Of a stretch of DNA of 64,000 nt, positions 56,333 to 60,952 are shown one piece after another. The notes below the pieces were generated by a model, which worked only from the letters and a program-made list of their open reading frames with translations, was not told where the DNA came from and made no database searches. This stretch comes from Dehalococcoidia bacterium (GTDB taxonomy: Bacteria > Chloroflexota > Dehalococcoidia > SM23-28-2 > RBG-16-64-32), in NCBI GenBank assembly GCA_963665775.2, contig CAXXTF010000002.1:544001-608000 (forward strand), given 5' to 3'. A program made the position numbers and the translations under genes. Positions within the stretch are counted from its first letter, which is position 1. The number at the start of each line of letters is the position of its first letter.

Positions 56333-57649
56333 ATGGGACGCCGTGGGGGGAAGATGGTTAACGATAAAGGCGTATACTGGGATCGGAAGGCTCAGCAGGC
56401 CTCAGTAACGCGTCATTCGGAGGTTAGCAGACCCATCGCCAAGACGTTACATCAAACGGCAGAGCCCCAGGAGCGGGCATTCCTGGTAGCAGCCGAGGTC
56501 AAAGGCCGCGGTGACGGCTGGACGGGCGACAGCTCCCTGGACGAGCTCTCGCTCCTGGCGGACACGGCCGGAGCACGGGTCGTCGGCCGAACGATTCAGC
56601 GGCTGGACGGGCCGCAGCGGGCGACCTACGTCGGTAAGGGGAAGCTCCAGGAGGTCGCCTCGCAGCGACTCGCCCTGAACTTTTCGACGGTCATCTTCGA
56701 CGACGAACTATCGCCGTCGCAGCAACGGAACCTGGAGACCGCTCTCAAGGTGAAGGTGCTGGACCGGACGGCCCTGATCCTCGACATCTTCGCCCAGCAC
56801 GCCCACACACGAGAGGGGAGACTGCAGGTAGAGCTGGCCCAGCACGAATACCTCCTGCCGCGGCTGCGCGGCCAGTGGTCTCACCTGGAACGGTTGGAGG
56901 GGCGCATCGGCACCCGCGGCCCCGGCGAAACGCAGCTGGAGACGGACCGCCGACTGATCCGGGAGAAGATTCGCAGGCTCAAACGGCAGATCGAGGCGGT
57001 GCGACAGCAGCGGGCGCTGCACCGCCGCCAGCGGGCCCGTCAGGGCATGCCCGTGGTTTCCCTCGTCGGATACACGAACGCCGGCAAGAGCACCCTCATG
57101 CGCGCCCTCTCCGGCGCAAACGTACTTGTCGAAGACAAGCCTTTCGCTACCCTTGACCCTGTAACGCGACGGCTACGCCTACCGTCGGGAGCGACGGCCT
57201 TGCTGACCGACACGGTCGGCTTCATCCAAAAACTGCCGACACAGCTTGTCGCTGCCTTCCGGGCCACACTGGAGGAGCTGCAGGAGGCGACGCTGCTCCT
57301 CCACGTAGTAGACATAACGCATCCAAGCGCGCTGGAGCAGAGCGGCAGCGTGGAGGAGACTCTGAGGTTGCTGCGGTTAGGAGAGAGGCCGCAGCTGACG
57401 GTTCTCAACAAGACAGACCTCCTCACTGACAAGCAGGGAAATCAGACGGTCGACGGCGCCGCGACGGCCGTGCCCGGGATAGCGCTCACCGAATGGCCGC
57501 CGGATACGCTTCTAGTCTCGGCGGCGCAAGGCTGGGGCATGGACGAGCTGCTAGAGCGGATCGAGGGGGCCCTGGCCGCCGGCTCGGAAAAAGCGGCTTA
57601 CAGCCAGGCATACCAGCAGGGGATAACCAGCGCCCTGAGCCAGCAGTAG
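56333..57649 (+). CDS. hflX: GTPase HflX
   Basis: ILDIFAQHA.TREG.LQVELA, GPGETQLE.DRR, GYTNAGKS, DTVGFI, NKTD; start uncertain. Confidence 0.95.
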   Translation: MGRRGGKMVNDKGVYWDRKAQQASVTRHSEVSRPIAKTLHQTAEPQERAFLVAAEVKGRGDGWTGDSSLDELSLLADTAGARVVGRTIQRLDGPQRATYVGKGKLQEVASQRLALNFSTVIFDDELSPSQQRNLETALKVKVLDRTALILDIFAQHAHTREGRLQVELAQHEYLLPRLRGQWSHLERLEGRIGTRGPGETQLETDRRLIREKIRRLKRQIEAVRQQRALHRRQRARQGMPVVSLVGYTNAGKSTLMRALSGANVLVEDKPFATLDPVTRRLRLPSGATALLTDTVGFIQKLPTQLVAAFRATLEELQEATLLLHVVDITHPSALEQSGSVEETLRLLRLGERPQLTVLNKTDLLTDKQGNQTVDGAATAVPGIALTEWPPDTLLVSAAQGWGMDELLERIEGALAAGSEKAAYSQAYQQGITSALSQQ

Positions 57650-57751
57650 CCAGCGGCCAGGGCACTCAGCTATATTGACAACAGTCGTAATTACCCCCTT
57701 GACGTAGGTACTTGTTCATGGTACGATATCCCCGAAAGGTAGGTAGAAACC

Positions 57752-58627
57752 ATGAACAAGTACACAATCCGAGACCTCGATAGTCAGTTCCCCACGGACG
57801 ATGCTTGCCTGGACTGGCTGAAGGATTACCTCTACCCCGATGGCATCTTTTGCAAGGTCTGCCAAGCCGTCACTAAGCATCATCGGATTAAGAGCCGCAC
57901 TTCCTACTCATGTGACCGCTGCGGGCACCATGAGCACCCGATGGCCGGAACGATTTTCGAGAACTCACGCACCCCGCTCCGACTGTGGTTCCATGCTGTA
58001 TTTCTCATGGCCTCCACACGCTGCGGCATTTCGGCTAAGCAGCTTGAGCGTCAATTGGGCGTCACCTATAAGACGGCTTGGCGCATGTTCAAGCAGATTC
58101 GTACCCTTCTGGCTGAGCCGCCTAGCCTCCTCTCCGGCCAAGTGGAGGTTGATGAGACCTACATCGGCGGCAGGCCGCGTCAGAGCACCGACAGGCGAAC
58201 CGCCGCCCGAACCCGCATGAGTAACAAGTCTGCGGTTGTTGGCCATGTCCAGCGCGGTGGTAGGCTTCACGCCATCCACCTACCAGATGGTACAGCCAAG
58301 GTGCTGGTGCCCCTAGCTGAACAGTACATCATCCCTGGCTCCACGGTTTACAGCGACGAACTCCCCGCCTACAAGGCGCTTGCCCGTAAGGGCTACCAGC
58401 ACAAGCGGGTCCACCACGCTGCTAAGGTCTACGTTTCCGGCGACGCCCACACCAACACGATTGAGGGCTTTTGGAGCCTGCTGAAGCGCGGCATTGGCGG
58501 CGTCTACCATGCAGTTAGCGCGCAGCATCTACAATCCTACCTGAACGAATACGCATTCCGTTACAACCATCGACGTGATACTCAGCCTATGTTCGAGACG
58601 ATTCTCCGCCAGGTGGAGAAGACTTAG
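57752..58627 (+). CDS. IS1595-family transposase
   Basis: Zn ribbon CKVC..CDRC, HTH ISAKQLERQLGVTYKTAW, VEVDETYIGG, YSDE, HTNTIEGFWS, YLNEYAFRYN. Confidence 0.95.
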   Translation: MNKYTIRDLDSQFPTDDACLDWLKDYLYPDGIFCKVCQAVTKHHRIKSRTSYSCDRCGHHEHPMAGTIFENSRTPLRLWFHAVFLMASTRCGISAKQLERQLGVTYKTAWRMFKQIRTLLAEPPSLLSGQVEVDETYIGGRPRQSTDRRTAARTRMSNKSAVVGHVQRGGRLHAIHLPDGTAKVLVPLAEQYIIPGSTVYSDELPAYKALARKGYQHKRVHHAAKVYVSGDAHTNTIEGFWSLLKRGIGGVYHAVSAQHLQSYLNEYAFRYNHRRDTQPMFETILRQVEKT

Positions 58628-59595
58628 CCCGGCGACTCACTTTCTTGAGAGCTGCTTCGAAGGTCCGACGCGTTAACCCCTGCATCTGCTTCGTCCGCTT
58701 TGGCTTCGGCTTCCTTCCGCTCTTCTTCTGTTGCTGCCCTGGGTCTCGCGACACTAGATCCCTCCTCTGCCAAAATCTTGGAAAGCCTCGCCGCGTCAGT
58801 CGTGATCGACTGGAGCTCTAGCGTGCGCATTGTATTAAACATCGTGGTAAGCTCTTGAGTCACCCGCGACGTGGGCTCGTATTGCATCCTGCCCCCGGCT
58901 ATGACGTGCCAAAGATCAGTAGTGCCGCCGACTCCGGGCGCTTCCTCGGCTCGTTTCTTCGCAAACAGAGCGATACGCATCGCTGAAAACCAATTTCTCT
59001 TGGGGCTGTACATCGCATGAGCAAATTCCGCTTCAGCATGCCCAGCGCCAATCCCTATCGCACAGAAGCCCGTTCCGGTCCAATTGCGCTCCCATCCAGG
59101 CCCCTCAATCGTATATAACTGAGCGTACTCCTGACCCTCTAGGGTATCGAATCCAGCGATGATGATTGAGCCTAAGTCGTTGTCGTCATCACCAATTAGG
59201 ATGCTTAACCGCTCGAAAAAGTCTGGTGTCCACTCTTTCTGACGGCTGATGAGACTGTCAACATCGAGACCGCAAGGGTGAAGATAGCGCCTCTCTACGT
59301 CTCTACGACGAATAGCCTGTACTTCCACTGCGACGACCTTCGCTAACTCCTGAACCGTACAGTCCTTCTCTACTCGCTTCCACGCATTCATGTACGCTTC
59401 ATAGAGAGAGTCAACCGATCCCGACATCAATACTGCCGTATTGTCACGAAACCAAGTCACCTTGGTCTGGTCAGCTAGTTCGTACTCTCGTATGCGTCTC
59501 GCGGTTATCATTCGGTCAGATGCTAAAATGATAGCTGAGCGCTGGACGCCCTCCGTGTCCAGGTAGGTAGACAATGCCGCTATGCAAACCGTCAT
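58624..59595 (-). CDS. Proteasome-beta/HslV-like Thr-Ntn hydrolase (IS passenger)
   Basis: MTVCIA, ILASDRMIT, TKV, MSGS, IIIAGFD, LYTI, FCAIGIG, GVGG.TDL; ORF also open from ATG 59649. Confidence 0.7.
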   Translation of the reverse strand: MTVCIAALSTYLDTEGVQRSAIILASDRMITARRIREYELADQTKVTWFRDNTAVLMSGSVDSLYEAYMNAWKRVEKDCTVQELAKVVAVEVQAIRRRDVERRYLHPCGLDVDSLISRQKEWTPDFFERLSILIGDDDNDLGSIIIAGFDTLEGQEYAQLYTIEGPGWERNWTGTGFCAIGIGAGHAEAEFAHAMYSPKRNWFSAMRIALFAKKRAEEAPGVGGTTDLWHVIAGGRMQYEPTSRVTQELTTMFNTMRTLELQSITTDAARLSKILAEEGSSVARPRAATEEERKEAEAKADEADAGVNASDLRSSSQESESPG

Positions 59596-59719
59596 AGGCC
59601 GTCGTCTCCGCAGTACTCTCTTGCGCTTAAGGCGCTGCTGGGATATCATATCCCCGCTCCCCTACCTACGTCAAGGGGATAATTACGACAACAGTCGATA
59701 TAAGGCCTATCATAGCGTC

Positions 59720-60079
59720 ATGGCTATGGAAGTGAAGGTCACCAGCGAGAAGGGCTGCTGCGACGTGGAGGAGGAGCCGCTCAGGGAGGCGGCGTCCGCT
59801 ACGGATAGCGCCCTGGCCGATGCGGCAACGCTGTTCAAGGCGCTCTCCGATGAAACGCGGTTGGGCATCCTGCGAACGATGGCGCACTCTGGAGTAGAGG
59901 TGTGCGAGTGTGAGATAGTGCCCCTGTTTGGGCTATCGCAGTCGACGATCTCCTACCACCTGAAGGTGTTGCGCGAGGCGGGGTTCGTGGAGTGCGAGAA
60001 GCGGGGGCTGTGGAGGTACTGTAGAGTCAACCCGCGCGCTTTGATGGCCGCGGTAAAGACGCTGGCCGAGCTGGCCTAA
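59720..60079 (+). CDS. arsR: ArsR/SmtB-family regulator
   Basis: LFKALSDETRL.IL, EVCECEI, LSQSTISYHLKVLREAG; N-terminal CC. Confidence 0.9.
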   Translation: MAMEVKVTSEKGCCDVEEEPLREAASATDSALADAATLFKALSDETRLGILRTMAHSGVEVCECEIVPLFGLSQSTISYHLKVLREAGFVECEKRGLWRYCRVNPRALMAAVKTLAELA

Positions 60080-60095
60080 ATCGATAGATATCGAT
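60080..60095. promoter_or_regulatory. Putative ArsR operator upstream of arsM
   Basis: ATCGA-TAGATA-TCGAT palindrome; same pattern as the reconstructed arsR promoter site ATTGA-CAACAG-TCGAT. Confidence 0.55.
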
Positions 60096-60112
60096 AGAGA
60101 GGAGGGTTACCC

Positions 60113-60952
60113 ATGACCACCGAGCGAGAGATCAAGGAGACGGTGCGCGAGCGTTATGCTGAGAGCGCACGTCAAGTAAAAGCGGCGGACGAGACGTCCT
60201 GTTGCGGGTCCGACTGTTGCGGGTCCGAGACTACGGCGGACGTGACCAGCTCCAAGCTCTACACGACGGACGAGCTCCAGGAGCTGCCGCAGGAGGCGGT
60301 GGCCGCCTCCCTGGGCTGCGGCAACCCGGTGGCGATGGCGGAGCTTCGCCAGGGCGAGGTAGTGCTGGACCTCGGCTCCGGCGGTGGCATCGACGTGCTC
60401 CTCTCGGCGCGTAGGGTCGGTCCCACGGGCAAGGCCTACGGGTTGGACATGACGGACGAGATGCTGGAGCTGGCCAGGGAGAACCAGCGCCAGGCCCGAG
60501 TCACCAACGCCGAGTTCCTAAAGGGCGAAATGGAGGATTTACCCCTACCGAACGGCTCCGTGAACGTGATCATAAGCAATTGCGTGATCAACCTTTCGCC
60601 GGACAAAGACCGGGTGCTACGGGAAGCGTACCGGGTGTTGGAGCCGGGCGGCCGCATCGCCATCGCGGACATCCTGACCAGGGGAGAGATGCCACCAGCG
60701 CTGAAGCGCGATATGGAGCTATGGGCGGGCTGCGTAGCGGGAGCGCTATCGGAGGTAGCGTACCGGAGCAAGCTAGAGGCAGCCGGTTTCCAAGAAGTGG
60801 AGATCGAATCGGTGCCTGAGCACACAGCCACGGGGCTCCGGCGATCGTATGAAGGAGAAGTGCCGGGAACAGAGGACACGCCACCCGGCCCTGCCCACGC
60901 GGAGCGGCTGGGGCTCGCCAGTGTCATCGTGCGGGCAGGGAAGCCGCGGTAG
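60113..60952 (+). CDS. arsM: Arsenite S-adenosylmethionine methyltransferase
   Basis: VRERY, SCCG, SLGCGNP, VLDLGSGGGID, ISNCVINLSPDK, WAGCVAGAL. Confidence 0.9.
   Translation: MTTEREIKETVRERYAESARQVKAADETSCCGSDCCGSETTADVTSSKLYTTDELQELPQEAVAASLGCGNPVAMAELRQGEVVLDLGSGGGIDVLLSARRVGPTGKAYGLDMTDEMLELARENQRQARVTNAEFLKGEMEDLPLPNGSVNVIISNCVINLSPDKDRVLREAYRVLEPGGRIAIADILTRGEMPPALKRDMELWAGCVAGALSEVAYRSKLEAAGFQEVEIESVPEHTATGLRRSYEGEVPGTEDTPPGPAHAERLGLASVIVRAGKPR

Follow-up and report, generated by a model that had tools for sequence, protein, structure and literature searches.

A 2,002-bp unit in a Dehalococcoidia genome is an insertion sequence (IS) of the IS1595 family that carries, probably as its passenger, a gene for a proteasome-beta-like protein of the N-terminal nucleophile (Ntn) type. 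The unit lies at positions 57686-59687 of the window, by which we mean the whole stretch of 64,000 nucleotides analyzed here (assembly GCA_963665775.2, contig CAXXTF010000002.1, positions 544,001 to 608,000), and holds two convergent genes, one for a DDE transposase and one for the Ntn protein. We assign a probability of about 0.55 to the reading that the element is an intact transporter IS and that the Ntn gene is a passenger with a role independent of transposition, not a part of the transposition machinery. The element is thus of an ordinary kind with an unusual and recurrent cargo, undescribed in the literature as far as we found. Two observations go beyond an earlier note on this DNA: the pairing of the two genes is recurrent, and elements of this IS lineage also exist with different cargo at the equivalent place.

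Structure and boundaries of the element

The earlier note had described 25-bp inverted repeats and an 8-bp target-site duplication around two convergent genes with overlapping stop codons, all of which are found where it had placed them:

57678..57685, no strand: left copy of the target-site duplication, ACAACAGT, 8 bp (direct repeat seen in the sequence)
57686..57710, plus strand: left terminal inverted repeat (IRL), 25 bp, CGTAATTACCCCCTTGACGTAGGTA, including TTGACG (inverted-repeat search; the match of a second genomic copy begins here)
57752..58627, plus strand: IS1595-family DDE transposase, 291 amino acids (aa), with an N-terminal Zn ribbon (open reading frame (ORF) list, Pfam, NCBIfam)
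58624..59595, minus strand: proteasome-beta-like Thr-Ntn protein, 323 aa, starting MTVCIAA (ORF list, profile, model)
59663..59687, minus strand: right terminal inverted repeat (IRR), 25 bp, reverse complement CGTAATTATCCCCTTGACGTAGGTA (inverted-repeat search)
59688..59695, no strand: right copy of the target-site duplication, ACAACAGT, 8 bp (direct repeat seen in the sequence)

The two terminal repeats match at 24 of 25 positions. By our own estimate, made with no tool, chance would produce an 18-nt repeat (up to 4 mismatches) together with a perfect 8-bp duplication about 3e-5 times per locus in the space scanned for complete elements. The left end of the element is fixed independently, because the genome has a further, truncated copy (G000:C2:859929-860669; 99% identity across element positions 1-741), which begins to match exactly at the equivalent of 57686 and has a flank different from that in the window. 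This second copy (L002, 1501-3741) is interrupted after element position 741 by another insertion sequence, which encodes a 441-aa protein; the remainder of the element was found nowhere else in the window's 91%-complete genome.

Exactly two long ORFs lie inside the element, and their stop codons overlap (TAG at 58625-58627 on the plus strand, TAA at 58624-58626 on the minus strand). The assignment of the transposase to the IS1595 family, as the earlier note had it, is borne out by matches to DDE_Tnp_IS1595 (PF12762, 5.2e-44, score 150 with a cut-off of 27 bits), to Zn_ribbon_IS1595 at the N-terminus (PF12760, 3.1e-08) and to the NCBIfam model IS1595 (NF033547, 6.4e-61). The residues C34, C37, C54, C57, D134, D202, E238 and K245 are invariant in alignment A3, which holds the window's transposase and eight relatives.

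The Ntn protein, its fold and its active site

The likely start of the Ntn gene is 59595, since an alternative upstream ATG at 59649, which gives a 341-aa reading, falls within the -10 box of a promoter-like site; the sequence GGAG lies about 9 nt ahead of 59595. A word-indexed search yielded 29 relatives, 24-100% identical to the protein, named in their sources "20S proteasome alpha/beta subunit" or "hypothetical protein". The Pfam model Proteasome (PF00227) is matched at E <= 0.01 by 13 of these 29 relatives; the window's own protein stays below the gathering threshold, with no match at E <= 1. The profile built from the relatives found 20S alpha and beta chains of the PDB at E values of 2e-6 to 1e-4.

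With an AlphaFold2 model of the protein (pLDDT 89, pTM 0.80), Foldseek retrieved both 20S beta subunits and Anbu (E about 1e-9, probability 1.00), as expected from the earlier note, which had proposed a structural comparison of this sort. In VIA-align, the model superimposes on the Archaeoglobus beta subunit 1j2q_H over 194 residues (Z 24.9, root-mean-square deviation 2.4); all 1000 of the chains compared had Z >= 8, those among the matches listed being all 20S proteasome chains, and identity to the ten best structural matches was 14-21%. The four-layer alpha-beta-beta-alpha fold of proteasome beta subunits, of the kind found in peptidase family T1, is therefore supported by the predicted structure. 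Further features of the model are helices at 61-74 and 81-108 with no insertion between early strands, a helical insertion at about 109-135 after helix 2 (helices 112-117 and 124-134), helices 184-193 and 202-216 separated by only about 8 residues, and a 38-residue C-terminal helix (244-281) followed by a charged, acidic tail of low confidence.

Thr2 sits on the catalytic Thr1 of the proteasome, because model residues 2..255 align to residues 1..198 of 1j2q_H. A propeptide is absent, since in 59 of 60 loci the Thr codon directly follows a start codon (ATG, GTG or TTG), which in most cases is preceded by a Shine-Dalgarno sequence. We infer that the initiator Met is removed, leaving this Thr as the N-terminal nucleophile. 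Residues D27, K45 and G59 are the equivalents of Asp17, Lys33 and Gly47 by order and spacing (D-K 18, K-G 14). The near-invariance of Thr1, Asp and Lys, which the earlier note had proposed to examine, holds across 173 family proteins: Thr in 160 of 161 aligned, Asp27 in 165 of 166, Lys45 in 171 of 171 and Gly59 in 164 of 173, with G181 and G183 in all 173, Lys213 in 172 and Asp227 in 169. All the other motifs that the note had listed for this ORF are present in its translation, and its description of the ORF as a proteasome-beta-like Thr-Ntn protein and sole cargo agrees with the fold and with the conserved Thr1, Asp, Lys and Gly.

In the profile alignment, G-I-G at 181-183 stands opposite the G-S-G of a Thermoplasma subunit, such that Ile occupies the Ser129 position, again as read earlier; across the 173 proteins this position is Ile in 83, Ser in 24 and Ala in 19. 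The replaced Ser129, together with a score below every Pfam threshold, could suggest a catalytically dead scaffold or a decaying relic without function. However, Thr, Asp, Lys and several Gly are near-invariant among proteins whose identity goes down to 24%, the ORF is intact with a Shine-Dalgarno sequence, and the model is confident, all of which make a dead protein highly improbable. The missing Ser129 is not disqualifying for peptidase family T1, because this residue is not conserved in all homologues.

The Ntn gene is recurrently paired with transposases

Relatives of the Ntn gene were collected in a genome set of 67 loci (9 regions plus 59 loci from a second scan, minus L083, which is identical to L021) and in a metagenome set formed by the best 80 of 232 relatives. 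Their neighborhoods were searched with profiles for the window-type IS1595 transposase and for a second cluster of neighbors, an IS1-like DDE transposase whose matches to NCBIfam IS1 (2e-7 to 9e-22) fall short of the cut-off. The co-occurrence with IS1595 transposases that the earlier note had suggested looking for is found and is wider than IS1595: a transposase of one of the two types adjoins the Ntn gene (<=1.5 kb) in 50 of 147 loci, namely 19 of the 67 in the genome set (11 IS1595-type, 8 IS1-like) and 31 of the 80 in the metagenome set (17 IS1595-type, 14 IS1-like). When only loci flanked on each side by 1,200 nt or more are counted, the fractions are 16/45 and 15/32, together 31/77. In two additional loci, L025 and L026, the transposase is in the same repeat-bounded unit as the Ntn gene, on the far side of a nested IS. 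Where the transposase is of the IS1595 type, it lies downstream of the Ntn gene and convergent to it in 24 of 28 cases.

A scan for complete elements, in which an 18-nt inverted repeat (<=4 mismatches) and a perfect 8-bp duplication had to enclose both genes, recovered 12 of the 28 linked IS1595-type loci (L039, L050, L064, L065, L130, L131, L135, L141, L142, L144, L153 and L168), corresponding to 10 distinct insertions, and 4 of the 24 linked IS1-like loci (L019, L026, L119 and L154); the loci that failed include short contigs and decayed copies. Beyond the element of the window, 14 further distinct insertions in several phyla thus enclose the Ntn gene and a transposase within repeats and an 8-bp duplication. 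The IS1595-type ends share nGnnATTAT...CTTGAC, and the IS1-like ends begin with GGTAGTG. We rejected the explanation that IS1595 elements simply insert next to Ntn genes, because the repeats and duplications surround both genes. The Ntn family seems, then, to travel largely by transposon. Cassettes lacking a transposase, with the Ntn gene alone between two repeats, were also sought, and eight transposase-less loci gave no convincing repeat pair.

Several related elements bear on the passenger reading. Genome G246 has two copies, 100% identical, of a 3,437-bp IS1-like unit (L026 8994-12430, L025 7150-10586). The unit ends in perfect 17-bp repeats, GGTAGTGTCTCAGTTTG, and just one of the copies shows an 8-bp duplication, AAACTACC. 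Within the unit are a basic ORF of 82 aa, the Ntn gene with a frameshift, a nested ORF of 321 aa that resembles a transposase, and an IS1-like transposase; both copies have the same frameshift, and an intact Ntn copy is found elsewhere in that genome. The 3.5-kb IS1595-type element of L142 (66-3553), with an 8-bp duplication, has extra genes between the Ntn gene and the transposase, one for a 165-aa protein that matches the Pfam family 8xMP (octameric membrane protein, 1.5e-08) and the other a 116-aa ORF of no family. The two nearest plasmid IS1595 elements (L180 2423-4949, CP122394.1; L181 2453-4122, NZ_CP083567.1), whose transposases are 42-43% identical, have the same end motif and 8-bp duplications and hold other convergent genes without match to the Ntn profile. 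Finally, L031 and L047 have an intact Ntn gene without transposase and with the window-type end motif upstream; at other transposase-less Ntn loci, similar TTGAC-containing motifs were judged by eye.

Some side observations were made in these loci. An ORF of about 82 aa (motif ...GGKARASKLTAEERSEIARKGALARW), with no Pfam match, stands just upstream of the Ntn gene in L026 (9042-9290), L025, L049 and L067. Among the convergent passengers of the L180 and L181 plasmid elements, one 107-aa ORF has a borderline Cas2 match (6.3e-05), just below the cut-off.

Predicted promoters, hairpin and subterminal repeat

Further predicted features lie close to the ends of the element:

57699..57727, plus strand: promoter-like site of the transposase gene, -35 TTGACG within IRL, 17-nt spacer, -10 TACGAT (consensus scan, predicted)
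57708..57763, plus strand: perfect 15-bp stem with arms 57708-57722 and 57749-57763, the right arm containing the transposase start codon (fold prediction)
57727..57745, plus strand: partial subterminal copy of the inverted-repeat motif, TATCCCCGAAAGGTAGGTA, just 5' of the transposase start (repeat search)
59645..59674, minus strand: promoter-like site of the Ntn gene, -35 TTGACG within IRR, 18-nt spacer, -10 TATGAT, 10 of 12 matches (consensus scan, predicted)

The consensus scan found 5 sites against 1.3 +/- 1.1 in shuffles. Both -35 boxes are within the terminal repeats, so that bound transposase could repress both genes. The 15-bp stem has a predicted energy of -27.1 kcal/mol (z -5.1), equaled by none of 200 shuffles; the leader of the Ntn gene is without comparable structure (z -0.9). 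The stem is expected to form only on transcripts that read through from outside, since its left arm is upstream of the putative transcription start, and on those transcripts it would hide the transposase start codon. A regulatory role is proposed by analogy with IS10 and IS50, which are protected in this way from transcription that begins outside the element. The subterminal copy of the repeat motif, which has an equivalent in L027, is possibly a second binding site for the transposase. Between the two convergent genes the scan gave no terminator-like site, and therefore their transcripts may collide or pair.

Passenger or accessory factor

In the reading that we prefer, the element would have inserted between the hflX gene and the arsR-arsM pair, producing the 8-bp duplication. 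Each gene would be read inward from the promoter in its own terminal repeat, and transposase bound at the ends would damp both. The product of the Ntn gene would be a propeptide-free proteasome-beta-like hydrolase with the Thr nucleophile backed by Asp27, Lys45 and Gly59, and its predicted proteolysis or peptide ligation would benefit the carrier cell or the element. The family would reside largely in IS1595-type and IS1-like transposons and spread with them. That the protein most likely does work independent of transposition follows from the Ntn gene staying intact after loss of the transposase. A passenger role is likewise supported by the other genes that related plasmid IS1595 elements hold in the same convergent slot, by the window-type end motif kept upstream of the intact Ntn genes of L031 and L047, by the duplication of the G246 unit with its frameshifted Ntn gene and by the elements with additional genes.

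Several points weigh against this reading. The transposases that recur beside the Ntn gene are of two related kinds only, IS1595 and IS1-like, and one might expect to meet a cargo that merely rides along in transposons of further types as well. Across 8 pairs, the distances of Ntn proteins are correlated with those of the transposases (Mantel r 0.74, p about 0.0008), which would also fit a functional partnership. The loci are partly non-independent, with the same element present in several assemblies (L050/L141, L130/L131, L032/L033, L106/L108, L110/L111). The protein of the window has no match in Pfam (E <= 1), NCBIfam or PADLOC and has Ile for Ser129, and the roles given to the promoters and the hairpin come from consensus matches and fold prediction only.

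The first of these points bears on another explanation, in which the Ntn protein would serve transposons of the IS1/IS1595 type as a dedicated accessory factor, controlling the level of transposase or dismantling the post-transposition complex. Stable post-transposition complexes of other elements are taken apart by the host proteins Lon or ClpX. The restriction to two related transposase types in the 50 of 147 loci argues for such a factor, as do the position and convergent orientation kept in 24 of the 28 IS1595-type cases and the location of both -35 boxes inside the terminal repeats. Furthermore, the transposases of L073 and L077 are the nearest to the group of the window (42-51% identity), with Ntn proteins in the other main clade; this mixing of Ntn and transposase clades suggests repeated re-pairing within the same transposase superfamily. 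However, related IS1595 elements have other genes in the slot, IS1595 transposase relatives occur in 237 plasmid records and a detectable Ntn relative in no plasmid record at all, and over half of the well-flanked loci are Ntn genes without transposase. The G246 unit was duplicated with a broken Ntn gene as well, a point tempered by the intact copy elsewhere, which could act in trans. Taken together, these data leave the accessory factor as a possible, rather unlikely, explanation. We hold as similarly doubtful its extension to the whole family, by which the Ntn proteins would be a dedicated protease module of the IS1/IS1595 superfamily and insertion sequences a main route that spreads proteasome homologues among bacteria and archaea.

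Family size and distribution

A profile search run exhaustively over 1.84 billion cluster representatives gave 1,523 matches at E <= 1e-30, 3,801 at <= 1e-10 and 5,012 at <= 0.001, the weakest of which will include ordinary proteasome subunits; the family has no Pfam model of its own. The loci are found in many bacterial phyla and a few archaeal bins; 5 other hosts each have a single Ntn locus in the genome. Two of the loci, L032 and L033, have identical Ntn genes and upstream regions on contigs binned to Binatia and to Pirellulales, which reflects either a recent transfer or a binning artefact.

The earlier note had raised the idea of an anti-phage effector or stress factor spread by the IS. 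As a special case of the passenger reading, the Ntn protein could be an anti-phage or conflict effector moved between genomes in this way. Consistent with it, the distribution is patchy (a match in 8 of 401 sampled genomes of the window's phylum, several of these broken), copies are often broken (the gene is split into two or more pieces in 16 of 147 loci), and the Ntn protein tree disagrees with host taxonomy. Some transposase-less loci adjoin AbiE, DUF6119, caspase/CHAT, patatin, NYN, DNA methylase, integrases or terminase, and one element also has the 8xMP membrane protein. However, the protein of the window matched 0 families of PADLOC-DB 2.0 at E <= 1, the transposases are the sole conserved neighbors and many other neighbors are housekeeping genes. 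With the queries used, no relative appeared in the phage collection or in viral contigs: tblastn of the Ntn protein against plasmids and phages gave no match, viral contigs searched with alignment A2 gave no confirmed relative, and PHROGs gave nothing significant. We consider an anti-phage role improbable.

No partner ATPase had been seen by the earlier note, and none is present in the element or adjoining it. Among the loci examined, no neighbor of the Ntn genes is conserved other than the transposases, a partner ATPase included. The only ATPase neighbor is in L022 (9797-12501), where a degraded Ntn copy without N-terminus is beside a gene for a Cdc48-like double AAA+ ATPase, which we take as chance.

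The insertion site

The genes around the element were named from their translations. To the left of the insertion is a gene for an hflX-like GTPase (56333-57649), and to its right an arsR-like plus methyltransferase pair (from 59582/60113). Within 59582-60952, the longest reading of the ArsR-like regulator ORF to the right of the insertion begins within the end of the IS; the S-adenosylmethionine-methyltransferase-like ORF of the same region has a Cys-rich N-terminus and is possibly an arsenite methyltransferase. The insertion may affect the transcription of both ORFs.

Among Logan contigs from 4 runs, no empty site or excision joint was found, contigs breaking at the IS ends; one loose contig end matches the flank of the second copy. 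The hflX genes of 40 relatives are 70-80% identical to that of the window, too distant for an intergenic empty-site comparison. In four public runs, contig depth rises 10- to 30-fold across the transposase segments 58052-58239 and 58428-58521, likely due to motifs common to IS1595 elements of other organisms in the samples.

Significance and comparison with known systems

To our knowledge, no function is known for the stand-alone proteasome homologues, among them Anbu, BPH and the 22 groups of the 2021 catalogue. With its robust genomic link to a single kind of mobile element, the Ntn group acquires a testable context, and the compact convergent design with two promoters is easily rebuilt and assayed in a laboratory strain. 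The findings show that insertion sequences, besides phages, move proteasome-like genes between phyla and domains, and the transporter IS of the IS1595/IS1 class gain what is probably a recurrent, conserved passenger.

The ISNwi1 group of the IS1595 family is characterized by ends ggnnatTAT, a DDEK motif and variants with passenger genes. With its ends CGTAATTAT, the nGnnATTAT ends of 10 other elements and the invariant D134, D202, E238 and K245, the element is a candidate member of this group. The definition of transporter IS, IS1595-family elements that carry passenger genes, goes back to Siguier, Gagnevin and Chandler (2009), as cited in PMC3129680. The element of the window shares with them a DDE transposase with Zn ribbon, an 8-bp duplication and, between the repeats, one or more added genes that have no part in transposition; it differs in that its passenger is a proteasome homologue and in that the pairing recurs across phyla, also with an IS1-like transposase. 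A literature search for links of IS1595 or transposons with proteasome homologues found no paper on this pairing.

With the 20S beta subunit (1j2q chain H) the Ntn protein shares the Ntn fold (Z 24.9), the N-terminal Thr and the Asp, Lys and Gly in the expected order. Unlike it, the protein of the window has no propeptide, no alpha subunit or ATPase nearby, and has a helical insertion of about 27 residues after helix 2, the 38-residue C-terminal helix, the acidic tail and Ile at Ser129. Anbu, BPH and HslV are, like the Ntn protein, bacterial proteasome-like Thr proteases; Anbu and BPH, as far as the sources available to us describe them, have no ATPase partner and no propeptide, and Anbu has a long C-terminal helix. 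None of the three is in the best 60 PDB sequence matches of the profile, and Anbu ranks 27th by Foldseek. In contrast to HslV and Anbu, the Ntn gene adjoins the transposase, hflX and arsR and has no HslU or Anbu-type operon beside it.

Fuchs, Alva and Lupas (2021; PMC8665760, of which the available portion is used here) catalogued 22 new proteasome homologues in silico. Their connectase is described as having lost helices H1/H2 and as having a two-helix insertion between S3 and S4; the model of the window has helices 61-74 and 81-108 and no insertion between early strands, and thus lacks both traits. The PMI-4 group has insertions after H1/H2 and between H3 and H4, of which the model has the first, with only about 8 residues between helices 184-193 and 202-216. 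The PHI group, in bacteria and archaea, has a helical insertion after H1/H2 and, in some members, a C-terminal coiled coil; the Ntn protein shares with it the closeness to both alpha and beta subunits, the absence of a propeptide, the long insertion after H1/H2 and the spread over bacteria and archaea. Compared by description only, the Ntn protein probably falls in one of these groups, PHI being the best fit and PMI-4 less so. As to the earlier note's question whether the ORF belongs to a characterized family, no such group is described as experimentally characterized in the portion of the paper available, but the protein probably belongs to a group that this in silico catalogue already lists. 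Nowhere does PMC8665760 contain the string "transpos", and it reports no transposon link for its groups. It does link two groups, PPH and AAH, to phages, with PPH of about 140 residues. These are, as described there, the closest parallel in one respect, proteasome-like genes on mobile elements, and differ from the present case in the vehicle, which in the window is an insertion sequence, and in the size of the protein, 323 aa against about 140 in PPH.

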